Positions 13,326 through 26,855 of a stretch of 63,547 bases of DNA are shown piece by piece. A program made the position numbers and the translations under genes. This stretch comes from Vicinamibacterales bacterium (GTDB lineage: Bacteria; Acidobacteriota; Vicinamibacteria; Vicinamibacterales; 2-12-FULL-66-21). Under the pieces are notes generated by a model, which saw nothing but the letters and a program-made list of their open reading frames with translations, searched no databases and was not told where the DNA came from. The stretch is from assembly GCA_051986585.1 (NCBI GenBank), contig JBPYFA010000293.1, forward strand, positions 1 to 63,547, in the 5' to 3' direction. Every line of letters begins with the position of its first letter. Within the stretch, counting starts at the first letter, position 1.

Positions 13326-14099
13326 CTAATAAGGACCGTCAACCGGAACGAAGAAATCGTCCTGCCGCCATTCATGGACGCGACGGTATCCGTGTGCTGC
13401 GAGCAGCGCCACAATCTGACTTCGCTTGGGCTCCTCGCGATTGTGCTCGATGGTCCACGCACCCACGCGGTACCGATCGAAAGGGAATCCCCGCAAGGCT
13501 TCCAGTTCTGCCCCCTCGATGTCCAGCGACACGTACTGGATGAACGGAGGGGCGCCGGCACGCGTCAGGATGTCATCGACGGTAACGGTCTTCACGGTCA
13601 CTGTCGGTGCACTCGCCGCCGTCTTGTTCCATGTGCCCAGCGTCTCGTCGACGCCGCCGAGTCCGCCGGCGGTATGAAACGTCATCAGCAGGCCGGGTTT
13701 GCTGAAGACAACCTCTTTGAACATCTTGCACGTGCGCCCTTCCATATGGATGGGAAAGGGATCGATACAGACTCCGTTCCATCCGCGCTCCTCGAGCGCC
13801 CGGCTATTCGATCCAATCGTGCCGTGACTGGAGCCGATATCGACGAAGTAGCCGTTGGTCACGCCTGGGAACACTCGTTCGAGGACCCATTTGTCCTGGC
13901 CGATTTCGGAAAAATACTCGGGACGGCCTCGAAGTTCGTTGACCGTGACCTGCAGGTTCCGCACGAACGACAGCTGACAGCAGCGACGGTTGTCGCGAAA
14001 GAGCTCGGCTGCGCCACTGTGGCGAACCACCACGAACGTACAAAACAGAGCGGCGACGGCTCCCACCGACAAGAAGAGACGCCGAGCAGGAATTTTCAC
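13326..14099 (-). CDS. FkbM-family methyltransferase with N-terminal signal anchor
   Basis: SAM-binding block YFVDIGSSHGTIGSNS and FkbM block VSLDIEGAELEALRGFPF are present. The GTG start overlaps the upstream stop (GTGA). Confidence 0.75.
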   Translation of the reverse strand: MKIPARRLFLSVGAVAALFCTFVVVRHSGAAELFRDNRRCCQLSFVRNLQVTVNELRGRPEYFSEIGQDKWVLERVFPGVTNGYFVDIGSSHGTIGSNSRALEERGWNGVCIDPFPIHMEGRTCKMFKEVVFSKPGLLMTFHTAGGLGGVDETLGTWNKTAASAPTVTVKTVTVDDILTRAGAPPFIQYVSLDIEGAELEALRGFPFDRYRVGAWTIEHNREEPKRSQIVALLAAHGYRRVHEWRQDDFFVPVDGPY

Positions 14100-15622
14100 T
14101 CGCCGCTATTGCTCACGAAGGCAATCATCCGGCCGTCAGGCGACCACGACGGCACGTTGATTGTTCCCTGTCCGCCGTAGACATACGCAATCACGGTCGG
14201 CGCGCCGCCATCAATCGGCATCAACCGCAAGTACACGCGCTTGTAGTACGGATGATCCGAGGCCTCGATCTCTTTCGGAAAGCTGATGAAGGCGATCGAC
14301 TGGCCGTCGGGTGAAATGTGCGGGAACCAGTTGTTCAAGTCATCCTTCGTGAGCTGTTCCGGGGTCTTCCCGTCCGCCGTCATCCGCCAGATCTGCATCG
14401 TTGCGCTGCCGCGGATCGAGTTGAAATAGATGTACTTGCCATCCGGGCTGTACTCGGGGCCGTCATCCAGACCCGGCGTGTTCGTCAGGTTGATCTCCGT
14501 GCCACTGCCGTCGGACGCAATCTTGTAGATATCGAATTCTTTGTTCCGCCCGCCGGTGTAGACGAGCCACTTGCGATCGGGTGACCAGCCGTGAAGATAT
14601 GACGGCGCCAATGGCGTAATCCGCTTCGGCGTTCCGCCGCTCGTCGGCACCGTGTAGATAGCCGATCCATCGCCTGCACTTTGGTCGCTGATGCCAAGCA
14701 TGCTGCCGTCGAACGAGAGCACGTGATCGTTGTTGATCCGATTCAGTGTGCCGGTCTCGATTGGCGTTGGCTGCCGCGTCGCGAGATCGAACCGGAACAG
14801 GCGGCCGCGTGTTTCGCCGCGTCCGCTGCTGTTGAAGATCAGCGCGCTACCGTCGGTCGTCCAGTTTGGCGCCTCGAAAGGCTGCTGCGATCGATAGATC
14901 GCCGAACGGTGACCGGTCGATACGTCGAGGATCTCGAGCACGCTGCCGATGTAGTCGCGGTACGGAACGAAATCCGGTTTTGCCGGCCGGATGACGCGAA
15001 CGTTGCTGAACACCGCTCGCTCGATCACGTCGGCATTGTGTGAACAGAGGACCAGCCCGACGAATACTTCGTCGCCGAGGCTGATGTCCGAGACCTCGGT
15101 GTTGACGAACGGCTCGCCGAACTTCGCCGCCGCGAAGGTGACGGTGGTACCGCGCCGCTCCAGTTGGAGAACGTCTGCCCCTTTTAGGGCAGCCTGCTTT
15201 TCTTCGGTTATTGCCCCTTTCGTGCGGCGGAACTGCAGCGAGGTCAACCCGTCGCCGTGGACGATCCCGTCGGCGTAGACGGCATCATCGTCCTGACTCG
15301 ATCGAATCATTAGACCGGCCTTGCGATGGGCTTCCACGCCCTTGCCGATCAGCTGCACGCGCGTCTGCAGGATGAAGTCGCCGGTGAGGCGCTTCCACAC
15401 GAAATGAAACTCGTCTCGCTGCGCCCACATGTTCGCGCCCGCCGCGGTAATCGTGTACTCCTGCGACAGGGGGTTGTATGCTGCCGAGCCGGCCACCTTC
15501 GGCGCGCCGACGTCCGCGTGACGGTCGAAATCGCCGAGCGGCGTCTGTGCGTCAACGAAGGCGGACGCCCCGGCGGCAACGACGGCGAGCAGGGTTGAGA
15601 GCAGGCTTGGTAAACGCATCAC
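14096..15622 (-). CDS. secreted TolB-like/PD40 beta-propeller protein with N-terminal concanavalin-like (DUF1349-like) domain
   Basis: The signal peptide is MMRLPSLLSTLLAVVAAGASAFVDAQ. Repeated PD40 motifs are WSPDRKWLVY, YSPDGKYIYFNS, ISPDGQSIAFISF and WSPDGRMIAFVSN. Confidence 0.8.
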   Translation of the reverse strand: MMRLPSLLSTLLAVVAAGASAFVDAQTPLGDFDRHADVGAPKVAGSAAYNPLSQEYTITAAGANMWAQRDEFHFVWKRLTGDFILQTRVQLIGKGVEAHRKAGLMIRSSQDDDAVYADGIVHGDGLTSLQFRRTKGAITEEKQAALKGADVLQLERRGTTVTFAAAKFGEPFVNTEVSDISLGDEVFVGLVLCSHNADVIERAVFSNVRVIRPAKPDFVPYRDYIGSVLEILDVSTGHRSAIYRSQQPFEAPNWTTDGSALIFNSSGRGETRGRLFRFDLATRQPTPIETGTLNRINNDHVLSFDGSMLGISDQSAGDGSAIYTVPTSGGTPKRITPLAPSYLHGWSPDRKWLVYTGGRNKEFDIYKIASDGSGTEINLTNTPGLDDGPEYSPDGKYIYFNSIRGSATMQIWRMTADGKTPEQLTKDDLNNWFPHISPDGQSIAFISFPKEIEASDHPYYKRVYLRLMPIDGGAPTVIAYVYGGQGTINVPSWSPDGRMIAFVSNSGE

Positions 15623-15727
15623 TTCACCAACATCGAGTCGGCCGCAGTGTAGCGCAGACCTCCGGCTCTGGCGAGCCTCCCGCCCGGGCGCGCCATCGCG
15701 CTGGTTTCTGCCGGCGCGGAAAGTGAT

Positions 15728-17047
15728 TTACGAAATGATTCTCACGTTAGTTGGTACGGTCGGCGCCGCCACAAATCGATTCGCAATTTTGTGCAAATCC
15801 GGCATGACGCCAATCCCGGTTACGGCAGTCCCATTGTTCGGGTCTGACAGCACCGCCCGTAGCTGCGATGCGTCGAGCCGTTGGCCTGTGCTGTGCTGGA
15901 ACATGCCCTGGGTGCTTAGCGCGGCTCCAGCAATGATCGCCGCCGCCGCCGACGTATCCAAGAAACATGGAGGAGCATAGGCCGACGTATCACCCGGACC
16001 GGTCGAGACCGACGTGAAGACGTCGTCGCCCCACGCAAAGCAGTCAATGCGGGTTCCGAAATTGGAGTTCGGTCGCGGCGTGCGAGTCCCGCTCGACGCA
16101 GACGCGACCATAATTGCCAGCGAGTCTCTGAAGGCCCTCGTGAAGAGGGCATTCCCGTTGCTGTCCACGAAGATGTCAAGCCTGCTGCCGCCGTTGCCTG
16201 CCGGTTCGACTACGACGACGCCAGCGGCCGTGGCCATACTAATGTTCGTGTAGCAGGTCGAGTCGATCTCAACGGGGAATCCATCTGCGCTGTTCGCCTC
16301 GATCAGGAGAACATCACCGGTCGCGAGCACGTGAAAGGCGACCAAAATTGCTTGCGCGAGCGCACTCCACGACGGCGGGGACACTGCGTCAGGCTTGTAG
16401 GATACGACGTTCACCGACCCGGGATTCGGTGCGACTCCGAAGAAGTGCTGCACGTTATCGTTGCCACAAACAACGCCAAGCGTCTGGGTACCGTGCATGG
16501 CATCTGCGGGATCGGCCACGCCGGACAACGGCGGCGGGATCGCATGCACCTTGAGTGCGTCGTGATCCAGCGTCCAACCGGTTTCGACATCGATGAAAGC
16601 GATGCCTGCCCCATTCGCGCCGCCCACCCCCCGGACAGTCGAGGCAGCGATACCGCCCCCCTGGCCCAAGTACCCTTCGCTGCACGGAGCCTTTGGCACG
16701 CTGTCGCGGTACGCCTCCTCGACCGTCGTCCACGCCTTCAAGACGTTCGCAAGCTGCTCCGCCTCAGTTGGCGATTCGACCGCGACCACGAAATACGTCA
16801 GGAGGTTCGGTGCCTTGTACGTCGGACTGTGGCTGACCGCACGATCGGCAAGCCTCTCGAGATCTGCAACCGAGAGCTCGCGATACAGACGGCGAATTCT
16901 CACGCCTGGAAACTGCGCTTCAATGTCACTCCAGGGACCGATTCCCCGCTCCTCGATCTCAGGCCCGACGTCGTCGATGTACGGCAGCTTCACGCTGTCG
17001 CGGAACTTCAGAACGACTTGCGGTAAAAACGTGATGGTCGGCGGCAT
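15728..17047 (-). CDS. S8 (subtilisin-like) serine peptidase without a signal peptide
   Basis: The catalytic order is Asp (AFIDVETGW), His (MHGTQTLGVV), oxyanion Asn (EPAGNGG) and Ser (LDTSAAAAIIAG). The N-terminal ~110 aa look like an I9-type propeptide. The N-terminus MPPTITFLPQVVLKFRD is not hydrophobic, and the ORF cannot be extended upstream. Confidence 0.85.
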   Translation of the reverse strand: MPPTITFLPQVVLKFRDSVKLPYIDDVGPEIEERGIGPWSDIEAQFPGVRIRRLYRELSVADLERLADRAVSHSPTYKAPNLLTYFVVAVESPTEAEQLANVLKAWTTVEEAYRDSVPKAPCSEGYLGQGGGIAASTVRGVGGANGAGIAFIDVETGWTLDHDALKVHAIPPPLSGVADPADAMHGTQTLGVVCGNDNVQHFFGVAPNPGSVNVVSYKPDAVSPPSWSALAQAILVAFHVLATGDVLLIEANSADGFPVEIDSTCYTNISMATAAGVVVVEPAGNGGSRLDIFVDSNGNALFTRAFRDSLAIMVASASSGTRTPRPNSNFGTRIDCFAWGDDVFTSVSTGPGDTSAYAPPCFLDTSAAAAIIAGAALSTQGMFQHSTGQRLDASQLRAVLSDPNNGTAVTGIGVMPDLHKIANRFVAAPTVPTNVRIIS

Positions 17048-17061
17048 CGTTCAGCTCCGGT

Positions 17062-17979
17062 TTAGATGGATCCAGGGGGGCAGTAGTCGGGGTCAACGCT
17101 CGACGCCACCGGCGGTGGAGGCTGCGGATCCGAGACGGCGTCCGGTACCCACTGCTTGTCAACCAGCTGATAGAACAGCGCCATGTGATCGACGCAGGGC
17201 CTCGAACCCTGGCACATACCCGGCGTGGACGGATTTGTCGGCAGGTTGTAAACGACGACGGTCGCTGGCAGCTTCACCACAGCCGTCTGGCTGCCGATGT
17301 TGAAGATCGCGTTCGCGTTCGCTGCGTTGATCTCGCAGTTCAACGTATCGGTCAGTGCCTGTTTCACGACCTTTTGCGGCGTACCGTTCACCTTGCGAGT
17401 GAAGTTCCAGACGACGCTCCGTCCGTATTGGCTCTCCGGCTTGAGGGCTTCGAGTCGGCCGTGCTCGAGGGTCAAGGTGCCGCAGAATTTTGAGTTGTCG
17501 GTAATCATCGTCGCGCCGCAAAGGGTCGGCAGACGAGCCGCATACTTTACAGACTTCCAGTGCGCATCGTCGCCGGGAAGGTCTTCGCCGATGTTGTCTT
17601 CGTTGAACGCGACGTCAGGTGAGCCGGACAGGCCCGCATCGAGCGTCACCGTCTTGTCTTTGAGATCGAATACCTTCCTGCCACTCTGATACGGGTCATT
17701 CACCGAGGGAGCTGTCGAGGAGGCATCGATGTCTTGATTGCTGACCGACAAGTAAGGGTGGTGCTCAATCACGTGAAACTGGTTCGGATCAAATTTGGTC
17801 GCGTCGACGAAGTGGAGAGTGAAGGCGTTGCCGCTTCGCTGTACGAGAGAAAGCCCCTTGATGTTGACGTTGAGTCGCCGCTGGCCAGTTGGGGATAGTT
17901 GGCGCGAACAGGCCGACCCCAGCGCTCCTGTCGCCAGCGCGGCGGCAAGCCGCACGAAATTCCGTCGATCGATTCCCAT
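17062..17979 (-). CDS. Tat-signal hypothetical exported protein (possible lipoprotein)
   Basis: MGIDRRNFVRLAAALATGALGSAC carries a twin-arginine motif followed by a Cys. I recognise no family. The C-terminus is Pro/Cys-rich. It sits 9 nt after the CHAT gene and 14 nt before the S8 gene. Confidence 0.7.
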   Translation of the reverse strand: MGIDRRNFVRLAAALATGALGSACSRQLSPTGQRRLNVNIKGLSLVQRSGNAFTLHFVDATKFDPNQFHVIEHHPYLSVSNQDIDASSTAPSVNDPYQSGRKVFDLKDKTVTLDAGLSGSPDVAFNEDNIGEDLPGDDAHWKSVKYAARLPTLCGATMITDNSKFCGTLTLEHGRLEALKPESQYGRSVVWNFTRKVNGTPQKVVKQALTDTLNCEINAANANAIFNIGSQTAVVKLPATVVVYNLPTNPSTPGMCQGSRPCVDHMALFYQLVDKQWVPDAVSDPQPPPPVASSVDPDYCPPGSI

Positions 17980-17988
17980 CGCATCCTC

Positions 17989-20900
17989 CTAATCTGAACC
18001 AATCAGCGTGAAACCCGCCCATGCGGCGGGACTTTGGAGCAGCGGGTCGGCATCAGCCATCAGCTCGAGCTGCGCTTTTCGGAGCGCCTCGGTCGGGTTT
18101 GCGGACTGGCGCAGCTGGCTATGAAACGCAACCAGCAAGCGACGGCTCGCGCGATCGTTGACGTCCCAAAGGCTGGCTACTACCGCGGGGACGCCAGCCG
18201 CGAGAAACGGCCGTGCGAGGCTGAAGACGCCTTCGCCGCGCCGGATCCGGCCGGCGCTCGTACGACAAGCGCCGAGCACGACGAGCCGCGTCGCCGCAAA
18301 CGGCTGTTGTGCGATATCGCGCGCGAACAAGCTGCCAGACGCCTCGCCGTCGCCCGCAAAAAGGAGCCGCGACAAGTCAGGATGCGCATCGTTCGCCACC
18401 GCGTGGCCGGCAAAGTGGATCACTTCGTACTGGCCGGCCGTGCTGAGGAACGCCTGCCGCGTCGCATCCGCACCGATCAGGAGCGTCGATCCTGAATAGA
18501 GCGTCGCGATCTGTTTCGCTTCTGTTTCCGCTTCGGGCAGGTTCGGAGCGACCTCCGCGTCGGCACCTTCGAGCCGCGGGTTGCCGATCACGAGTGCGGT
18601 TCTGGTCGGCGCGCTGTGCTGCGTCTTCGGCGATTGAGCCAGGAGTAGCGTGACGCTCGGCGTGATCTTGATCGCATGCTCCTCGATCAGGAACCGCCGA
18701 TCGTCGCGACGTATCAAGGCCGCGAACGGTACGGCGTGCAGCACACCATCCGGAACGATGACGAGCTCAGATCCCTCCGGAATCCGGTCGGCTACCGGAC
18801 GGATCAGCAAATCGTACAGCCTCGACAGGCTGGGCGTGTCGCGAGCCGCGATGCTGCTGAGCAGCATCTCCGACCGGTACTGCTGCACGAGATGCTCGAG
18901 CTCGGCCTGGCGGACCGACACTGCGATGTCGTGCGTATGAGCTCGATCCATGACCCAAATCAGGAGCCGGTCGTCGAGCGCGACATAGTAGAGAAGGGTG
19001 ACTGACGGTGGCAGCTGCGTGCGACCAGCATTCGGGTCCACCGTTGCTGTCTCTCCCGTGGGCGAAATCGCCTCGACGAGCGTTCGCGCGCGGGCACGCT
19101 CCGCGTACAACAACGCGCGATCCGGCCGGTGCCGGGTGATCGCCTGCAGCCGGATCATTTCCGTGTAGAGGTCCCAAGGTTGTTCAAATGAGGCGCTGCG
19201 TAGCGCTTCGTCGGCGATGGCTGCGCGCCGCTGTTCGAAGAGCTCGATGCCAGCTGTCAAATCGGCTTCGGCCAGATCGTCGCGGCCTTCCGCGAGGTGT
19301 GCGCGCGCCCGGGCGAGTCGAACCCGCGCGACCGGCCAGTTGCGTCGAGCTTTTTCGAAGCCGGCAAGTGCGGTGGACAGTATCTCGACCGCCTCGCCGG
19401 GACGACGGTTTGCCTGCGCCTCGCCCTGGGCCAGCTGAATTCTCGGCTCGTCTCGTGCGATCAGCTGGGGATCCGGAACCGTCGACAACGCCTCCTGCGC
19501 CGCCGCCAGTTCCGTGAGCGCCTTGTCCGAATCGCCGCTCTCCTGGAGAATCTCGCCCTGGTACAGTCGTGCGTTGACGACAGCGAGCGGCCGTCCCCAC
19601 CGCTCCGCGTTCTTCAAGGTGGCGGCCTGGAAATACGCGGCCGTCTCGGTCAGGCCCTGGCGAAGCGCGGCCAATGCCGCGTTCTGAAGGACGAGGTGGT
19701 GGTGGCGGCGGTCGGCCACAGTACTGAGTTGCGACAACCCTTTCACGAGCTCGGCCCAGACGAGCGCCGGCTCGCCAAGAAAGTCCAGCACCTCGGCCGA
19801 CAGCGCATGCAGCGACGCCTCGTTCGGGATATCTCTTACGCGCTCGAAGCAGGCAGTCGCTGTTCTGTACTCTTGCAGGCCGCCGGCAAAATCTCCACGG
19901 ACGCCTTTGATCAAGCCGTGCATGCGATGTGCGAGGCCCAATACCCTTGTGTAATGCCGGTCAGTGGCAGTTTGAATGACACTCACGAGGAGCTTCTCAG
20001 CACCGTCGAGATCGGCAGCGTAGTAGCGACCAATCGCGAGGTTCAGCCGCGTCGATACGGCGAACGGACTATCCAGTCGCGTCAATGGCTCGAGCGCTGC
20101 CTCAAACTGCGGCATCGAGTCGCGGATCCGATCCTCGCTGTAAGCCATCGAAGCGGCGCTAAAGGTCGTATGCGCGCGCGCGAGTTCGGAAGCGAGACGG
20201 GCATTGTGCGATGCGAGAGCGATGGTCCGGAGGACGTTCGCGGTAAACGGGTCTCCCGTCGTCGACATGATGCCGGCGGCTGCCGCGTGCGATACGTCAA
20301 GCACTGTCCGAGCGTCCGCGCCTCGGTTCTCTGCGATCGCGCGCGGCCACGCGACGAGCACTTCATCCTGAAGCCATTCACGCGCCACATCTGGAGACTG
20401 CTCGGCGTTTCGCCGCAACTCTGCCGTGTCGCCACGACGCGCGGCGTCTTCAAAACGTGATTTGTCATCACTGGTCGAAGATTGATGCCGCGTCTCGAGT
20501 TCGCGCAAATGTGTGCGAGCTTCGCTCGCCCAGTCCGACCTGTCGTCTACCTTGAGATAGTCCTGCCAGGCGCGTCGGGCTTCATCGGTCAGAGAAAGCC
20601 GCTCGAGCGCGTAGGCGCGGTTGAACCAGGCCTCGGCGAGCCGCCTGTCGGCCTTCGTCGCGCGATCCGCGGTCGCCAGTGCCTTGGCGAGATCCTGCGG
20701 CTGGTCGTACCGCGTGGCTCGAACGAGGTAGGCGGCCGAAAGGTCGTTGAGGATTCGTGCGTCCGGAGTGGGCTGATCCGCCGCTTCTTCCAGAACCGGC
20801 ACCGCACGGTTGACATCGCCGAGAACGAGATAGGCAATGCCGAGCGCCTTCAGCGCCTGCGGCGTCCGACGGACAATCGCGTGCTTCTCGATCTGTGCAG

Positions 20901-21375
20901 CAGCGATGCGAACGTCGGGCGACACGGACGGCGCTGTCGCTTCGCCCGCCCGAACAGGACCGCGCAGCGGCCCGTAGGCAAAGCCTCCACTCAGCCGCGG
21001 CTCGACCGTCCGCTCCGTTCCGACGGCCGCCACTAGCGCCTGCAGTCCTGGCTCCTCCGGCGTCAGCCGCCAGAACCGGCCTATCCCGACCGCAACCACC
21101 AGACATGCCGCGGCCCCGAGGACGCCTGCCGACGCCCAGACGGCTCGGCGTACCGCGGCTCGCTGGAACAGCGGCACCGGTGTCGGATGGACCGTCGCTC
21201 CTACGCTGGCCGTGTGAGCCGTGTGCGTTTGGACCGCTTCACAAAACAGCGCATAGCAGGTCTCGCACGACGCGAGATGCGCCGTTATCTCCTCGCGCGC
21301 GCGCGCCGTCAGCCGATCGTCGAGATAGGCGCCGATCGTCTCGAGATCGGGGCACGGCGACACGTTTCCGGTCAT
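17989..21375 (-). CDS. membrane anti-sigma factor (zf-HC2) fused to TPR repeats and a C-terminal CHAT (caspase-like) protease domain
   Basis: The N-terminus has an HxxxCxxC motif (ITAHLASCETC) and a TM segment (AVWASAGVLGAAACLVVAVGIG). A long helical-repeat region follows. The C-terminal CHAT domain has His (VIHFAGHAV) and Cys (LVVLGACRTSAG). ATG 21375 overlaps the sigma stop as ATGA; GTG 21387 is an alternative start. Confidence 0.85.
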   Translation of the reverse strand: MTGNVSPCPDLETIGAYLDDRLTARAREEITAHLASCETCYALFCEAVQTHTAHTASVGATVHPTPVPLFQRAAVRRAVWASAGVLGAAACLVVAVGIGRFWRLTPEEPGLQALVAAVGTERTVEPRLSGGFAYGPLRGPVRAGEATAPSVSPDVRIAAAQIEKHAIVRRTPQALKALGIAYLVLGDVNRAVPVLEEAADQPTPDARILNDLSAAYLVRATRYDQPQDLAKALATADRATKADRRLAEAWFNRAYALERLSLTDEARRAWQDYLKVDDRSDWASEARTHLRELETRHQSSTSDDKSRFEDAARRGDTAELRRNAEQSPDVAREWLQDEVLVAWPRAIAENRGADARTVLDVSHAAAAGIMSTTGDPFTANVLRTIALASHNARLASELARAHTTFSAASMAYSEDRIRDSMPQFEAALEPLTRLDSPFAVSTRLNLAIGRYYAADLDGAEKLLVSVIQTATDRHYTRVLGLAHRMHGLIKGVRGDFAGGLQEYRTATACFERVRDIPNEASLHALSAEVLDFLGEPALVWAELVKGLSQLSTVADRRHHHLVLQNAALAALRQGLTETAAYFQAATLKNAERWGRPLAVVNARLYQGEILQESGDSDKALTELAAAQEALSTVPDPQLIARDEPRIQLAQGEAQANRRPGEAVEILSTALAGFEKARRNWPVARVRLARARAHLAEGRDDLAEADLTAGIELFEQRRAAIADEALRSASFEQPWDLYTEMIRLQAITRHRPDRALLYAERARARTLVEAISPTGETATVDPNAGRTQLPPSVTLLYYVALDDRLLIWVMDRAHTHDIAVSVRQAELEHLVQQYRSEMLLSSIAARDTPSLSRLYDLLIRPVADRIPEGSELVIVPDGVLHAVPFAALIRRDDRRFLIEEHAIKITPSVTLLLAQSPKTQHSAPTRTALVIGNPRLEGADAEVAPNLPEAETEAKQIATLYSGSTLLIGADATRQAFLSTAGQYEVIHFAGHAVANDAHPDLSRLLFAGDGEASGSLFARDIAQQPFAATRLVVLGACRTSAGRIRRGEGVFSLARPFLAAGVPAVVASLWDVNDRASRRLLVAFHSQLRQSANPTEALRKAQLELMADADPLLQSPAAWAGFTLIGSD

Positions 21376-22346
21376 CGCTTCAGCCACGATGTCCTCATGA
21401 ATCGCACGCGTCGGTCCGGTGCTGGAAGTTCGACGTTGTCACGCGACGAGCCGAACGACCCGTCAGCAAACAGCGCGCTGACGTCCGTCCGCGAAATGCC
21501 CTCTGCCTCGAGGCTCGCGCCAATCCGCGAGAGCAGCCGCTCGATCCTTCGATACAGTCGCTTCTGGTCCAGCTGCAGCGCGCGTGCAATATCGGCCACT
21601 GGCACCGCGTCCTCGAAGCGCATTTTGAGAATCAGCCGCTCCTCCGGGTCGAGCGCCTGTCGGGCGCGATCGAGCGCGGACTGAACGCGCTTGGCGAGAA
21701 AACCCTGCTCGGCGCGGACGACGTTGATATCGGAACCGGGACCGGGTTCCAAGATCTCCTCCGCGACATCTTCGGTGACGAACTGCCGCGACGGACCCCG
21801 CCTCGCCAGCTTGACGAATAACGCCTCCAGCGTCTCGTCGAGCGTCACACCATGATTGGTTCGCAGGATCTCCGTCGCCTGTTCGACGCTCCATCCGTCC
21901 CGCAACACGAGCCGCTCTACGAGAATCGCGATCGGTCCGAGACGATTCGCCTCCGCGGACGGCCGCCATTTGCCCCATTGACGATTCCGGTAATCGAGAA
22001 ACAAGCGCTGGATGACGACATTGATGTATGTCGGGAGGCTGCAGCGGCGTTCGAACCTCCGCAACACCTCGTAGTCGCGCTCGATGAAATGGAGGCGCAC
22101 TTCGGAGCGGAAATCGTCCGCTTCCGGACCGCTCAACCGATGGCGCCGGCACACCTGTGCGGCCACGTCCTCGATGAGGGGAAGACTGGCGAGGAAGAGA
22201 GCTTCGCCCTGCACAAACGACTCTGGCGACGCGACCAATTCGCGTCCGCGGCCCTGGTCCGATGAGCGAGCGGGCTGCGTGATGCGAGGCCATGCCGGAG
22301 CCGTGGGCTCAGGAGGCAGCAGCCGCTTTGACCGCGGATTATTCAT
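21372..22346 (-). CDS. sigma-70 family (ECF-like) RNA polymerase sigma factor with enlarged linker and terminal extensions
   Basis: Sigma-2 reads DDFRSEVRLHFIERDYEVLRRFERRCSLPTYINVVIQRLFLDYRNRQ. Sigma-4 reads LDPEERLILKMRFEDAVPVADIARALQLDQKRLYRRIERLL. The protein is 324 aa, with about 85 aa between the two regions. Confidence 0.85.
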   Translation of the reverse strand: MNNPRSKRLLPPEPTAPAWPRITQPARSSDQGRGRELVASPESFVQGEALFLASLPLIEDVAAQVCRRHRLSGPEADDFRSEVRLHFIERDYEVLRRFERRCSLPTYINVVIQRLFLDYRNRQWGKWRPSAEANRLGPIAILVERLVLRDGWSVEQATEILRTNHGVTLDETLEALFVKLARRGPSRQFVTEDVAEEILEPGPGSDINVVRAEQGFLAKRVQSALDRARQALDPEERLILKMRFEDAVPVADIARALQLDQKRLYRRIERLLSRIGASLEAEGISRTDVSALFADGSFGSSRDNVELPAPDRRVRFMRTSWLKR

Positions 22347-22380
22347 GATTGCGGGTCCGTTGACAACGCATTCGTAGGGG

Positions 22381-22406
22381 ATAGACGGACAACCAACCTC
22401 GATTCC
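22381..22406 (-). promoter_or_regulatory. candidate ECF-type promoter of the sigma/CHAT operon
   Basis: The minus strand reads GGAATCGAGGTTGGTTGTCCGTCTAT (GGAAT-N14-CGTCT), 36 nt upstream of ATG 22346. Its -35/-10 words match those of the 22573 site. Confidence 0.45.
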
Positions 22407-22572
22407 CGGCGCAAGACCGATGTCACTGCAGATAGTTTGGTCGCGTCGGCGGGCTCGGCCCCGAGGGTGAACAGGCCGGATAGGTACCTTCGGCCATCAG
22501 CGCTTTCTCGACGGACGCAGCCGGCGATTTCGCGCCGACTCACCAGCATTTCTTCCGATTCCTCTGGGCTCA

Positions 22573-22598
22573 GGAATTAGCGCCCTCCGTCCGTCTCT
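22573..22598 (+). promoter_or_regulatory. candidate ECF-type promoter of the divergent HExxH-protein/lipoprotein operon
   Basis: GGAATTAGCGCCCTCCGTCCGTCTCT (GGAAT-N14-CGTCT) lies 52 nt upstream of ATG 22649. It shares GTCCGTCT with the 22381 site. Confidence 0.45.
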
Positions 22599-22648
22599 TT
22601 CCGCGAAAGGCAGCCGGTTCGATCGCCGGCGAAAGCGGCAGGTGACGT

Positions 22649-23230
22649 ATGGGGTCTCGATTCACGAAGGCGTGCCTGGCGGCGATCCTGGGGTTGTCCG
22701 CGTCGGGAGCGACGAGCGCGGCTGACGATCAGCCCGGGTTGGCGTTCAAGAATCTCCGCACCTCTGATGCGGAGATCCTCTCAGCAATCTCGGGCTGCTA
22801 TCGCGACTCGCCGACATGCCATCAGCTGATCGATGAAATCGAATCGTCCTCGACCATCGTCTATCTCGCGCCGGGCCAGTGCATGCCCGGACAAGGCGGC
22901 TCCTGCCTGCGGTTTGTTACGGCTTCGACGCACGCAAGGTACCTCCAGATCATCCTCGACCGGGATCTGAGCGGCGCCTACCTGCTGAAAATCACCGCTC
23001 ACGAACTGCAACACGCTGTCGAGGTCGTCCGAGCGCCGCAGGTGGTCGATCGCTCCTCGTTCGAGCTGCACTACCGCCGGATTGGGTTCTTCATCCACGG
23101 ATCGGGAATGCGGGAGGACTGGGAAACCGAGGAGGCGCAGCGCATCGCCTCCATCGTCAGCAAGGAACTCAAGCGATCTCAGCGAGCCGCGTTGCTGGCG
23201 TTCAAGGACACGCGCGTCGGTAAGGAGTGA
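22649..23230 (+). CDS. small secreted protein with HExxH motif (putative zinc-metallopeptidase-like)
   Basis: The signal peptide is MGSRFTKACLAAILGLSASGATSAADD. An HExxH motif sits in ITAHELQHAVEV, and there are four conserved-looking Cys residues. I recognise no family. Confidence 0.65.
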   Translation: MGSRFTKACLAAILGLSASGATSAADDQPGLAFKNLRTSDAEILSAISGCYRDSPTCHQLIDEIESSSTIVYLAPGQCMPGQGGSCLRFVTASTHARYLQIILDRDLSGAYLLKITAHELQHAVEVVRAPQVVDRSSFELHYRRIGFFIHGSGMREDWETEEAQRIASIVSKELKRSQRAALLAFKDTRVGKE

Positions 23231-23233
23231 AGT

Positions 23234-23605
23234 ATGAAGAAAGTGCTTTCGTTCGTAGCGGTGAGCCTGTTGATGGCTGCGTGCGGCGGCTCACCTGTCC
23301 AGCCGAGCACCCGCGGAGGAAACTCGACGCCACCGCCGCCGGCCACCTATAGCGTCGCCGGAATGGTGTTCGAGGCAACCGCTGACGGTTCCCGCGGGAT
23401 CGCTGAAGCAACCGTCGCGGTCGCGAACGACCTTCAGACCCTGACCGCGTCAACAGACGCGAACGGTGTCTTCTCGCTCGAAGGGGTCAAGGTGGGCACC
23501 TGGCAGCTTTCCGTGACCAAGGACGGGTACGAGACTCGGACCATGATGCTCGATGTCCAAGCGACCCAGTCGGTCGACGTGGAACTGAAGGCGGTCAGTA
23601 ACTAG
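23234..23605 (+). CDS. lipoprotein with carboxypeptidase-regulatory-like (CarboxypepD_reg) beta-sandwich domain
   Basis: The lipobox is MKKVLSFVAVSLLMAAC. The domain pattern is YSVAGMVFE...ATVAVAND..TDANGVFSLEGVKVGTWQLSVTKDGYETR. It starts 3 nt after the previous gene. Confidence 0.75.
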   Translation: MKKVLSFVAVSLLMAACGGSPVQPSTRGGNSTPPPPATYSVAGMVFEATADGSRGIAEATVAVANDLQTLTASTDANGVFSLEGVKVGTWQLSVTKDGYETRTMMLDVQATQSVDVELKAVSN

Positions 23606-23766
23606 TGTCCTGTCCGCGTGGTTCGCGACATAATTCCCGGGCGGGACATCCCGGCTGGCGGCGTTGCTCCACCCTTAAATACTCCCCGTATTCGCGGTCG
23701 TCGCGCCTTGCCATCCGGGCGCCGCGCACCGGGACTATGCCGCGATCCACGCGGACAGGACACTAG
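23602..23766. repeat. 20-bp perfect inverted repeat flanking a 125-bp spacer (165-bp element)
   Basis: CTAGTGTCCTGTCCGCGTGG (23602-23621) and CCACGCGGACAGGACACTAG (23747-23766) are exact reverse complements. The left arm begins inside the stop codon of the lipoprotein gene. Confidence 0.9.
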
Positions 23767-23857
23767 CTCACGACGATCTGTCGAGGCGTCGATGACCGGG
23801 GGTCGTCCGACTTCGACGCCTCAGATCGCCTCGTCTCCGATCGCACCGTGCCGGTGC

Positions 23858-23882
23858 GAAATTCGCCAGCCAATCCGTCTAT
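23858..23882 (+). promoter_or_regulatory. third copy of the ECF-type motif, upstream of the second sigma gene
   Basis: GAAATTCGCCAGCCAATCCGTCTAT (GAAAT-N13-CGTCTAT) is followed by GGAGG (23889-23893) and GTG 23900. Confidence 0.35.
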
Positions 23883-23899
23883 ATCGCTGGAGGCGACAG

Positions 23900-24529
23900 G
23901 TGAACACGCAACTCACATCACCGGCGAACGTTCTGCCGGGGATTCCCGTAGGATTTTTGGAGCGATCCACAATTCTCGAAGTGACGCCCGATCTCGCTGC
24001 GAGGATCAACGGCGGTGACGAGGCGGCACTGGAAATCCTGCTCAGATCGTATTTGCCGGCACTGCGGCGAATCGTTCAGAAGCAACTGCGCGGTCACACC
24101 CGATCGATGCTCGATGCCGAGGACGTCGTTCAGGATGCGCTCGTCAGTACCCTCAGGCGGATGCCTCACTTCGTGTGGCGCACTCCCGGCGCGATGTTGG
24201 CGTATCTGCGGCGTGTGGTCCTCAATCGCATCATCGACGCAAACCGCAAGTGTGCACGCCAGGGCGAATGGGTGCCCTTGACCGACGACTGCGCAGGCGA
24301 GACGCCGTCACCGCTGGAGCGCGTGGTCGACAGCGAGCGGATCCGGCGATACCGGACAGCGCTGCTTCGGCTGAAGCCACGCGATCGCCAGCTGATCGTA
24401 CTCAGAGTGGAGCGGCAGCTGCGGTATCAAGAGATCGGCACACAACTGCGGATGCCGTCGGCCAATGCGGCACGAGTTGCGTTGATACGCGCGATGGCGC
24501 GCTTGGTTACGACCTTAGACCAGGTGTAG
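23900..24529 (+). CDS. ECF-type sigma-70 family sigma factor (no adjacent anti-sigma gene)
   Basis: Sigma-2 reads LLRSYLPALRRIVQKQLRGH..DAEDVVQDALVSTL...LAYLRRVVLNRIID. Sigma-4 reads LKPRDRQLIVLRVERQLRYQEIGTQLRMPSANAARVALIRAMARL. GTG 23900 was chosen because a GGAGG lies 6 nt upstream. ATG 23792 and the 23618 track start are alternatives. Confidence 0.8.
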   Translation: MNTQLTSPANVLPGIPVGFLERSTILEVTPDLAARINGGDEAALEILLRSYLPALRRIVQKQLRGHTRSMLDAEDVVQDALVSTLRRMPHFVWRTPGAMLAYLRRVVLNRIIDANRKCARQGEWVPLTDDCAGETPSPLERVVDSERIRRYRTALLRLKPRDRQLIVLRVERQLRYQEIGTQLRMPSANAARVALIRAMARLVTTLDQV

Positions 24530-24563: not shown

Positions 24564-25694
24564 TCACGCCAGCTGACGCCATCGTAGATGCGCGAGCCCC
24601 GTAGCGACCGCCAGTGCGCAAACAGTCACCACCGACAACGCCATGAATCGGCCGTAGAGCGCGCGGCCGATGACGTCGAAGATCGTCAAGCCCATGAGCG
24701 CGAGCGCAATTCCCAACATCCATTGCCAGCCGGTCGACAACTCGCGCCAGCGATCCACGAGGCACACGACTGCGGGCGTGGCCAGCAGCAGTACGTAATC
24801 CCACCCCTGTGGTGAGATGAGCGGGATCAGCAGCATCAGCAGCGCACACTCGAGGTACTCGGGCGCCGACGCCTTCCGGCGCCGCATCAACACCACGATC
24901 ACCAGCACCATGATCGCGACGACGGTGAGCCACGCGAGCGTGGTCGCCTCCGGACCCGGTCCCAGCCACTTCGCCCACATCGCGGCAATCGACACGTTGT
25001 CGTTTCCCAGGAGATTCGGCGCAGTTGACTCGCTCACCGTTCGCAACCACGCGCGCAGCAGGTCGAGGTTGCCATGCCAGCCGTAGACGACGGCAGGAAA
25101 CAACAAACCTGCGGTGACCACCGCACTCGCCCAGGCCACAGCGCGCCATCGTCCGGTAATGAGGAGCCAGGGAAACAGGATGAGGGCGTACGGTTTGACG
25201 AACACGGCAACGCCCAGAAGCAAACCTGCAGCGACCAGTTGGTTACGTTGCAACGCCAGCAGCGTGGCCAGGAGCAGCGTGCCGAGCAGCAGGTTCGGCT
25301 GGCCGAGCACGAGCTCGTGGGCGTAGAACTTGGCCATCAGCACGACGGTGATCCACGTGAGGAGCTGCCCCGACCGGCGTCGATCGGGCAGCGCCGCCAC
25401 CGACCACCGTAGCAGTGCGACGAGCAACCCGATCGAGATGGCGAACCAGACCTGCTTGCCGGTGGTTTCGTCCATCGCGCCGAACGGCGCCATCATCAGC
25501 GCATAGAACGGAAAGTATTTGAACTGATAATGCCCGTCTTCGGGACGGTAGAGCGGCTCGGCGTGCAACGCCCGCACGGCCGACTGCCGCCACGTGTGAA
25601 AGTCGATCATCTCGTGGCGGACTCGTACGTTGTAAACGACGACGGCGACCAACGCGAGAGCGAGAAAGCCGAGATAGCGTAATCTGCCGCGCAT
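24564..25694 (-). CDS. DUF2029/GT87-like polytopic membrane glycosyltransferase (paralog A)
   Basis: This multi-TM protein has blocks LYRPEDGHYQFKYFPFYAL, VFVKPYAL and ISPQGWDYVLL that are shared with the upstream paralog. Confidence 0.7.
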   Translation of the reverse strand: MRGRLRYLGFLALALVAVVVYNVRVRHEMIDFHTWRQSAVRALHAEPLYRPEDGHYQFKYFPFYALMMAPFGAMDETTGKQVWFAISIGLLVALLRWSVAALPDRRRSGQLLTWITVVLMAKFYAHELVLGQPNLLLGTLLLATLLALQRNQLVAAGLLLGVAVFVKPYALILFPWLLITGRWRAVAWASAVVTAGLLFPAVVYGWHGNLDLLRAWLRTVSESTAPNLLGNDNVSIAAMWAKWLGPGPEATTLAWLTVVAIMVLVIVVLMRRRKASAPEYLECALLMLLIPLISPQGWDYVLLLATPAVVCLVDRWRELSTGWQWMLGIALALMGLTIFDVIGRALYGRFMALSVVTVCALAVATGLAHLRWRQLA

Positions 25695-26855
25695 CTACGC
25701 GCTTGCCCGCCATCGCAGATGGGCCAGGCAGACGGCCATCAGTACGGCGCCAACGCTGACCACGCCCAAGTGCATCAGATGTGTATAGAGCGATCGATGA
25801 AGCAGGTCGAAGATGGTGAAACTGGTGAAGAAGAAGCCGGTCAGCGCGACGGCGCGCCAGGCTGGCGTGAGATCGTGCCACCGATCGACGAGGCACATGT
25901 ACGCGGGCATCGCGATCACCAGCACGTAGTCCCAGCCCTGTGGCGACAAGAGCGGCATCAGCACCAGGAAATAGGCGACATCGAGATAGTTCGGTTCGGG
26001 CACTCGCCGTCCTTCGAACACTACAGCAATCCCCACCGCGACGGCGGCCGCCGACGAGGCAAGCGCGAGGGCTCCGGCGGTCGGGCCCGGTGCGATCCAT
26101 TTCGCCCACATCGACGCGAACGAGATGTTCTCGGGGCCCATCAGGTTGGGACCTGTCGTTGTTGTGACGGTGCGATACCATTCATGCAGCAGCGTTACGT
26201 TGCCATTCCATCCGTACCACGCCGCTGGCAGCAGCAGCCCGCCGGCCAGCACCAGACCAAATGAAACGAGGGAACGCCACCCCAATCGCCATGCGAGCCA
26301 GGGCAAGAGAAGCAGCGGGTACGGTTTCACGAATACTGCCGCCGCAACCAGGCCGCCGGCCGTCATCACCCGGCGGTGCTGGGCCGCGATCACCGCTCCG
26401 ACGACCAGCAGCGCCAGCGGCAGGTTGAACTGTCCGAGCGCCAGCTCCTTTACCAGAAACTTGCCGTTTAAGAGCAGCGTGAGCCCGAGCAGTGTCGCCG
26501 CCGCCATCCTTCGGTCGGGCAACGCCGCGAGCGACAGCCGCAGGAGTGCCCAGGTCATCGCGACGGTGAGCGTGAACCAGGTGACCTCCGCAACTTCCTT
26601 CGGCATCCGGGTAAACGGCACCATCGCCAGGGCGAACGCAGGGAAATACTTGTATTGATAGTGACCGTCCTCGGGCCGGTAGAGCGGTTCGTGTGCGAGG
26701 AACCGTACCGCTGTCCGACGGGGTACGGCGAAGTCGACAAGTTCAGTGCGCTTCAAACGGAGCAGACCGTAGAGACTCAAAACGATGAGGGTGAAGACGA
26801 GGGGCCGTACGATCAAGCCCAGGCGCGACGGCACCCACCGAGGGTAACATTTCAA
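25695..26855 (-). CDS. DUF2029/GT87-like polytopic membrane glycosyltransferase (paralog B)
   Basis: It has blocks LYRPEDGHYQYKYFPAFAL, VFVKPYPL and LSPQGWDYVLV. Its stop abuts the start of paralog A. The track start at 26855 is TTG inside a heptamer repeat; GTG 26834 is an alternative. Confidence 0.7.
   Translation of the reverse strand: MKCYPRWVPSRLGLIVRPLVFTLIVLSLYGLLRLKRTELVDFAVPRRTAVRFLAHEPLYRPEDGHYQYKYFPAFALAMVPFTRMPKEVAEVTWFTLTVAMTWALLRLSLAALPDRRMAAATLLGLTLLLNGKFLVKELALGQFNLPLALLVVGAVIAAQHRRVMTAGGLVAAAVFVKPYPLLLLPWLAWRLGWRSLVSFGLVLAGGLLLPAAWYGWNGNVTLLHEWYRTVTTTTGPNLMGPENISFASMWAKWIAPGPTAGALALASSAAAVAVGIAVVFEGRRVPEPNYLDVAYFLVLMPLLSPQGWDYVLVIAMPAYMCLVDRWHDLTPAWRAVALTGFFFTSFTIFDLLHRSLYTHLMHLGVVSVGAVLMAVCLAHLRWRASA

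Follow-up and report, generated by a model that had tools for sequence, protein, structure and literature searches.

The closest characterized system to the locus described here is DdvS/DdvA of Myxococcus xanthus, a sigma factor of the extracytoplasmic function (ECF) type and its anti-sigma factor. DdvA contains a zinc-binding domain, a transmembrane helix, TPR repeats, and a CHAT domain (PMC11506125), and DdvS promoters have the form GTAA-n16-CGT, with four local promoters verified by 5' rapid amplification of cDNA ends (PMC6061681). In Streptomyces coelicolor, the ECF12 sigma factor sigma-R is made as a longer, unstable isoform from an autoregulated promoter and as a short form from a constitutive promoter (summarized in PMC7826278). 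ECF43-type sigma factors pair with Ser/Thr kinases, as in Vibrio EcfP/PknT, and lack DAED in region 2.2, while the actinobacterial ECF54 group is described without an anti-sigma factor and in a context of carboxypeptidase-regulatory, subtilase, and CHAT proteins (PMC8999054). The Acidobacteriota are abundant in soil, and their gene regulation is almost without experimental characterization. Here we analyze a 63.5-kb stretch of DNA from an uncultured lineage of this phylum, order Vicinamibacterales (the window), in which a bipartite motif recurs in front of two sigma factor genes (here called sigma-1 and sigma-2) and a divergent operon whose first gene encodes a secreted HExxH protein. We infer from its sequence that an alternative (ECF-type) sigma factor uses the motif as its promoter.

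Several features of the locus resemble DdvS/DdvA. The CHAT protein encoded after sigma-1 is itself, judging from its domains, a DdvA-like membrane anti-sigma factor, an identity that an earlier reading of the window from its letters alone (the sequence-only reading) had overlooked. It consists of a zf-HC2 zinc finger (C12 and H38-x3-C42-x2-C45, an HxxxCxxC arrangement), a hydrophobic and presumably transmembrane helix at about residues 82 to 103, TPR repeats, and a CHAT domain, the same N-terminal zinc-binding domain, single transmembrane helix, TPR, and C-terminal CHAT order as in DdvA. Anti-sigma factors of this CHAT-protease type were recently shown to gate a phage defense island in Myxococcus. 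The sigma/anti-sigma operon is autoregulated in Myxococcus and is predicted to be so here, and in both cases a similar local in silico scan found several AA...CGT promoters around the sigma gene, including divergent ones, with near-identical spacing (GTAA-n16-CGT versus GGAA-n15-17-CGT). The two systems also differ. The resemblance is one of architecture, without detected sequence homology: neither DdvA nor DdvS chains came up when the PDB was searched by phmmer and hmmsearch for sequences like sigma-1 or the CHAT protein, although the presence of such chains in the searched set is unconfirmed. Sigma-1 gave only weak region 4 matches in the PDB sequence search and the CHAT protein only designed TPR proteins. 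In place of CBASS and CRISPR genes, the targets proposed here encode a lipoprotein, a second sigma factor, and a secreted HExxH protein, and sigma-1 carries an N-terminal extension and a long interdomain insertion. The CHAT His and Cys residues are present here, and in most orthologous loci the two parts are split between neighboring genes, one for the anti-sigma part (~300 amino acids [aa]) and one for TPR-CHAT (loci L001 to L011; 44 of the L-numbered loci used here were fetched as genomic loci encoding sigma-1 relatives). The fused form is a continuous match in the window, L013, L020, and L035, and probably in L012 and L038.

The sequence-only reading had described three sites sharing GGAAT-N13/14-CGTCT, and all three strings are found at the coordinates and on the strands it gave: GGAATCGAGGTTGGTTGTCCGTCTAT at 22406-22381 of the minus strand, in front of sigma-1; GGAATTAGCGCCCTCCGTCCGTCTCT at 22573-22598, in front of the HExxH gene; and GAAATTCGCCAGCCAATCCGTCTAT at 23858-23882, in front of sigma-2. 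A GGAGG does lie between the third site and the GTG start codon of sigma-2, but the gaps to the start codons, put at 36, 52, and 19 nucleotides (nt), measure 34, 50, and 17 nt. The exact pattern occurs twice in the window against 0.28 expected, a count reached in 2 of 100 shuffles; because the pattern was picked after the sites had been seen, this excess is only suggestive. We rely on a two-block weight matrix trained on 18 sites upstream of sigma-1 orthologues in other Acidobacteriota genomes, with none from the window. When both strands (127 kb) were scanned, the four highest scores were those of the sigma-1 site (24.8), the sigma-2 site (21.5), the HExxH site (17.5), and a weaker fourth site on the minus strand, GCGAAATCGCCGGCTGCGTCCGTCGAGA (16.7), with the fifth-ranked match at 14.6. 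The top four all lie inside 1.5 kb, and each points at a gene. In Markov shuffles (n = 200), the expected number of matches per window was 0.515 above a score of 16, 0.315 above 17, 0.025 above 21, and 0.005 above 24. The fourth site is absent from the sequence-only reading and was added by the matrix scan. These sites exist, are statistically unusual, are directed at genes, and, as described below, are conserved block by block in orthologous loci.

The consensus of the motif is GGAA(A/T)-N14-16-CGTCTA, with the -10 element in the form (G)TCCGTCTA and, at sigma-1 orthologues, a -35 element of GGAA(A/T/G). GAA and C-C-G-T-C-T are invariant or nearly so across the 18 orthologous sites, and all four window sites fit. 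The spacer and flanks are not conserved in sequence, and the spacer also varies in length from 14 to 16 nt. The earlier N13/14 spacing depended on the anchor chosen: when anchored on GAA, all four window sites read GAA-N15-CGTC, and the N13 of the third site reflects an anchor one base further on. The earlier caveat that the spacer is unusually short likewise proved to be mostly a matter of counting convention. Counted as for the DdvS promoters, the window sites read GGAA-n15-CGT and the orthologous sites n15 to n17, so the spacing is not abnormally short and falls within the 14 to 17 bp of characterized ECF promoters (PMC6061681). The AA-type -35 and CGT-type -10 elements are likewise of the ECF kind. 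The -10 element varies systematically: it is CGTCTA(T/A) at sigma-1 and sigma-2 promoters, always CGTCTCTT at HExxH promoters, and often CGTCTC at kinase or secreted-protein promoters in orthologous loci.

Close sigma-1 orthologues, which share the N terminus MNNPRSER, have the motif upstream in 18 of 19 cases, 30 to 120 nt from the gene and co-oriented with the operon, the placement expected of autoregulation. De novo k-mer enrichment recovered CCGTCTA from 14 of the 43 upstream regions, where 0.55 would be expected, and every site is directed at a downstream gene 8 to 80 nt away. A metagenome scan with sigma-2 yielded 11 loci (47 to 71% identity), and all of those with upstream sequence have the motif 44 to 81 nt before the start. 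Altogether the motif lies upstream of 12 of 12 sigma-2 orthologues (scores of 19.5 to 28.5), and in an alignment of their upstream regions (A4; mean identity, 53%) invariance is confined to the GA(A) and TCCGTCTA columns. For the HExxH gene, the motif is upstream of all eight orthologues (scores of 16.6 to 24), with one further weak case in L017, where a lower-scoring copy (13.6) sits at -74, as far from the gene as in the window. Of the sigma-1 loci from the first scan, only L017 has an HExxH gene in divergent orientation.

When the divergent intergenic region from eight loci is aligned (A2; mean identity, 58%), the invariant columns coincide exactly with both -35 and both -10 blocks, with GGAAT and GTCCGTCT.TT invariant at the HExxH promoter. 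In the same alignment, the fourth site is the positional homologue of a T(T/A)AGACGGAC...ATTTCC block that is invariant in seven other loci, where it scores 22 to 31. By this alignment, the fourth site is homologous to the promoter of the sigma-1-like gene in syntenic loci, its -10 having apparently decayed from CGTCTA to CGTCGA in the window, where a second, better-scoring sigma-1 promoter lies 100 nt nearer the gene. The gene order itself recurs in at least eight loci: an opposite-strand sigma-1-like gene, back-to-back promoters, the HExxH gene, the CarboxypepD_reg gene, a promoter, and sigma-2. Two longer contigs found through HExxH homologues have the same three sites and no other above 13 in 9.8 and 17.5 kb. 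The one local regulon proposed by the sequence-only reading is supported at each link by this comparison, the motif being kept at sigma-1, at the divergent HExxH operon, and at every recovered sigma-2 orthologue; the direction of its cascade is a prediction, weighed next.

Sigma-1 is probably the reader of the motif and sigma-2 its target, because the motif follows the sigma-1 family into distant relatives and is missing from other sigma-2-family paralogues. Across 25 distant sigma-1-family loci from other Acidobacteriota classes, outside the training set, 11 matches fall in the 34 kb adjoining the sigma gene, many of them between the sigma gene and the anti-sigma gene, compared with 3 in the other 237 kb (Poisson P of ~1e-12). 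Even in orthologous loci that lack a sigma-2 homologue within 6 kb to either side, two to three sites are present, which precede sigma-1, a ~280-aa Ser/Thr kinase gene directly upstream of it, and a divergent gene for a ~130-aa secreted protein. The motif is missing from six paralogues of the sigma-2 family that lie outside the HExxH cluster and each have a kinase partner (best scores of -3.6 to 6.8). These two observations count against the reverse cascade, in which the motif would be the promoter read by sigma-2, which would autoregulate and switch on the sigma-1/anti-sigma and HExxH operons. Such an arrangement would suit sigma-2 as a canonical ECF factor, for which AAx/CGT motifs are typical; the motif directly upstream of each of its orthologues is what autoregulation would look like, and a sigma-2-like gene in L025 also has the motif in front. 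However, sigma-2 orthologues are never seen apart from a sigma-1-like gene, and we consider this reading unlikely. It is also quite improbable that both sigma factors, or a third encoded elsewhere, read overlapping versions of the motif, with promoters shared or partitioned (for example, CGTCTA versus CGTCTC). Overlapping ECF specificities exist in general, as among Bacillus subtilis sigma-W, sigma-X, and sigma-M, and the systematic -10 variation among promoter sets would fit, but the -35 element and the core -10 CCGTCT are alike at all sites, and nothing specific points to a third sigma factor.

That the motif is not a promoter at all, but a transcription factor binding site or a chance or repeat-derived similarity, is very improbable, and we rejected each of these explanations. 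In favor of this reading, the start sites at the motif are predictions, and the two back-to-back divergent sites form a large mirror arrangement. Nevertheless, the pattern is bipartite, with two conserved blocks around a spacer variable in sequence and length; no dyad symmetry is seen inside the sites; each site shares, strictly, the orientation of the gene downstream of it and lies at a promoter-like distance, and those at sigma-1 and sigma-2 are single. Chance is excluded by the matrix scan and the enrichment in distant loci, and no repeat family extends beyond the blocks.

Several points weigh against sigma-1 as the reader of a local promoter set. All that is said here of promoter activity, start sites, and sigma dependence is predicted from sequence. 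The HExxH site scores at a level expected about 0.3 times per window by chance; judged by score alone it is not significant window-wide, but it becomes convincing once its placement, the way it points, and its retention at orthologous loci are considered. The motif lies nearby in only 9 of the 25 distant sigma-1-family members. Every recovered sigma-2 orthologue shares its cluster with a sigma-1-like gene, so co-occurrence cannot separate the two sigma factors inside the cluster. Finally, the class of sigma-1 is somewhat ambiguous. Pfam assigns it no region 2 above threshold and only subthreshold region 4 matches, and in a Foldseek search its AlphaFold2 (AF2) model matched SigD, sigma-28, sigma-32, and SigB best, with ECF sigma factors close behind and low template modeling scores throughout. 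Together with the long insertion, these best matches to group 3 sigma factors make sigma-1 atypical, and the class of promoter it reads is therefore less predictable than for a textbook ECF sigma factor.

If sigma-1 does read the motif, the locus could work as follows. At rest, the cotranscribed zinc finger, transmembrane, TPR, and CHAT anti-sigma factor would hold sigma-1 at the membrane. A periplasmic signal sensed through TPR-CHAT would inactivate this factor, probably through proteolysis of the kind proposed for DdvA in M. xanthus. The released sigma-1, together with core RNA polymerase, would then act at three promoters. Its own promoter would provide positive autoregulation and renew the supply of anti-sigma factor; the divergent promoter lying back to back with it would yield the secreted HExxH protein and the CarboxypepD_reg lipoprotein; and the third would yield sigma-2 as a second tier of the response. 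The start sites predicted ~6 to 8 nt downstream of the -10 element, at about 22374-22376 (minus strand), 22603-22605 (plus strand), and 23887-23889 (plus strand), would leave short leaders of ~12 to 14 nt including GGAGG (sigma-2) and ~45 nt (HExxH).

The locus is thus probably a local regulon of the autoregulated ECF type that includes a sigma cascade, well supported and of a fairly ordinary kind, and it does not overturn the current understanding of ECF regulation. It yields a testable promoter consensus, GGAAW-N14-16-CGTCTA, and a small defined regulon for a widespread sigma family (>1,100 homologues) that is paired with a CHAT-protease anti-sigma factor. If it is true that sigma-1 drives sigma-2, the locus would represent a hard-wired two-tier sigma cascade in the Acidobacteriota. 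The promoter, paired with its sigma factor, could also be used as an orthogonal part for expression. More tentatively, and with considerable doubt, the sigma-1 family might form a distinct, undescribed acidobacterial branch: three-domain-like and N-terminally extended, gated by a DdvA-like CHAT anti-sigma factor, made as two isoforms from promoters in tandem (one upstream, autoregulated, and of ECF type, the other sigma-70-like and overlapping the first start codon), and standing at the top of a conserved sigma-to-sigma(-kinase) cascade that controls secreted proteolysis-related proteins. The features of the locus are collected in Table 1.

Table 1. Predicted promoters, genes, and other elements of the locus (positions refer to the window)
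Feature	Coordinates	Strand	Details
Sigma-1 proximal promoter (predicted)	22380..22407	-	-35 GGAAT 22406-22402; -10 CGTCTA 22387-22382; 34 nt 5' of ATG 22346
Distal fourth site (weaker, degraded)	22506..22533	-	-10 CGTCGA in place of CGTCTA; score 16.7
HExxH/CarboxypepD_reg operon promoter (predicted)	22572..22599	+	-35 GGAAT 22573-22577; -10 CGTCTC 22592-22597; 50 nt 5' of ATG 22649
Sigma-2 promoter (predicted)	23856..23883	+	-35 GCGAAAT; -10 CGTCTA 23876-23881; Shine-Dalgarno GGAGG 23889-23893; GTG 23900
Sigma-1, 324 aa, atypical sigma-70/ECF superfamily	21372..22346	-	TIGR02937
Anti-sigma factor fused to TPR-CHAT	17989..21387	-	Start overlaps sigma-1 end; Pfam zf-HC2 2.6e-6, CHAT 5.8e-71
305-aa protein, probable distal operon gene	17062-17979	-	Homologues after CHAT in L012, L013, L015
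S8 subtilase, probable distal operon gene	15728-17047	-	Pfam
PD40 beta-propeller protein, probable distal operon gene	14096-15622	-	Pfam
Secreted HExxH protein (signal peptide)	22649-23230	+	First gene, proposed target operon
CarboxypepD_reg lipoprotein	23234-23605	+	Second gene, proposed target operon
Sigma-2, canonical ECF sigma, 209 aa	23900..24529	+	DAED in region 2.2; Pfam, TIGR02937, PDB ECF sigma matches
Sigma-70-like promoter (putative)	22338-22366	-	TTGTCA-N17-AATAAT; overlaps sigma-1 start codon
Internal NTG codon of sigma-1	22212-22214	-	Codon V45
HExxH 5' leader	22600-22648		Conserved across 8 loci
165-nt hairpin element	23602-23766		Arm core 23604-23621; exact reverse complement 23747-23764
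GC-rich hairpin	~23774-23823		Between CarboxypepD_reg gene and sigma-2 promoter
Two tandem GT87-family glycosyltransferase genes	24564-26855	-	Convergent to sigma-2

Sigma-1 matches the sigma-70 family model TIGR02937 with 55.2 bits (cutoff, 42.9), its residues 62 to 275 aligning with profile positions 14 to 161. It carries ~65 extra residues between its sigma-2 part and its sigma-4 part, with four helices at 131 to 182, and an N-terminal extension of ~45 residues; its family comprises 1,163 matches at E values of ≤1e-5. We also noted a putative sigma-70-like promoter overlapping the sigma-1 start codon, the AATAAT of which, at 22343-22338, forms codons 2 and 3 (Asn-Asn). AATAAT is kept in 15 of 15 orthologues (from L001 to L017, at the sigma-1 start), although AAT makes up only 24 to 29% of Asn codons elsewhere. 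The spacing of TTG(T/C)C(A/C) to AATAAT is fixed at 17 to 18 nt, while its distance to the ECF -10 element varies from 2 to ~60 nt. A conserved NTG lies at codon V45, two codons before the conserved core (D-E-A-L-F); 13 sequences, the window's among them, have GTG there, L007 has TTG, and L008 has ATG. Across orthologues, the N-terminal extension is in frame but ranges from ~20 to 50 residues. As with sigma-R, there is a zinc finger anti-sigma partner, an ECF-type, presumably autoregulated promoter upstream of a reading frame with an extended N terminus, a second candidate promoter of sigma-70-like form whose transcripts would miss the first start codon, and a conserved internal NTG codon at the core start. 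Sequence conservation thus suggests long and short sigma-1 isoforms from two promoters, as for S. coelicolor sigma-R. Unlike the sigma-R case, this idea comes purely from such conservation, and the two sigma families are unrelated beyond the superfamily.

The sigma-1 operon probably comprises sigma-1, the anti-sigma-CHAT gene, the 305-aa protein gene, the S8 subtilase gene, and perhaps the PD40 gene. The first two genes of the distal region (14096..17979) have overlapping start and stop codons, and this region contains no convincing motif, the best matrix scores being 12.7 to 13.1. These weak matches, one close to the start of the S8 gene (17061-17090; 12.7) and one within the PD40 gene (13.1), do not rise above background, and we rejected both as sites. 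With its CarboxypepD_reg, Peptidase_S8, and CHAT genes, the window recalls the described context of ECF54, a likeness that we treat as a lead only; unlike ECF54, it has a clear zinc finger anti-sigma domain, fused to CHAT.

Sigma-2 is an ECF sigma factor by its matches to PF04542 (Sigma70_r2; 1.6e-10), PF07638 (Sigma70_ECF; 1e-8), and TIGR02937 (73 bits), and it is TIGR02984-like. The sequence-only reading had remarked on the lack of an adjacent anti-sigma gene, correctly for the window, where neither an anti-sigma nor a kinase gene adjoins it. A Ser/Thr kinase gene (~310 to 330 aa) directly follows sigma-2 orthologues or paralogues in L056 (1997-2983), L057 (10717-11649), L024, L034, L036, L042, and L043; judging from these relatives, the window copy has lost its kinase gene and is followed instead by a convergent GT87 glycosyltransferase gene. 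The GT87-family genes there are a tandem pair of paralogues, 47% identical. The lack of an anti-sigma gene, the kinase gene after its relatives, and the PF07638 match are shared with ECF43. Sigma-2 nevertheless differs from that group in that it retains DAED, and its window copy has no kinase gene next to it. A different, ~280-aa kinase gene with the motif in front lies directly upstream of sigma-1 in L003, L006, L007, L016, and L037.

The HExxH family has 44 members, all unnamed, that share an invariant A-H-E-x-Q-H-x-x-E. The window protein belongs to no Pfam or NCBIfam family, and its AF2 model, a confident one (predicted local distance difference test score, 80.8), has no significant PDB fold match (best E value, 0.02); the low-probability matches are zincins, such as IrrE/PprI, lethal factor, and M61. 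In L003, L006, L010 to L013, and L016, the minus strand carries, ~1 kb upstream of sigma-1, a gene for a conserved secreted protein (~130 aa; motif LTFSGPVGLPGVTLGAGTYAF); this gene is divergent from a motif copy and occupies the place of the window's HExxH operon. The HExxH 5' leader is kept across the eight loci of A2 (CCGCGAAAGGCAGCCGG...CCGGCGGAAGCGGCAGGTGACGTATG), with a GCCGG/CCGGC stem just 5' of the ribosome-binding site, and may be a regulatory structure.

An Rfam scan of 22300-23950 found nothing credible, with one match at 19.8 bits against a threshold of 42.6. Between the CarboxypepD_reg gene and sigma-2, a 165-nt hairpin element starts within the stop codon of the CarboxypepD_reg gene; its 42-nt arms are 86% complementary and have an arm core of 18 nt, and the 265-nt stretch that includes it (23596-23860) has a folding z-score of -8.4. 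The element is single copy within the window and has no Rfam match. The spacer between these genes is ~130 to 160 nt in orthologous loci versus 294 nt in the window, and because orthologous spacers are so much shorter, the hairpin may be a small mobile or structured insertion. Finally, a conserved GC-rich hairpin (GAGGCGTCGA...TCGACGCCTC), present in the window and in L045 to L051, probably acts as a terminator that has no U-tract; this would account for the need of sigma-2 for a promoter of its own.

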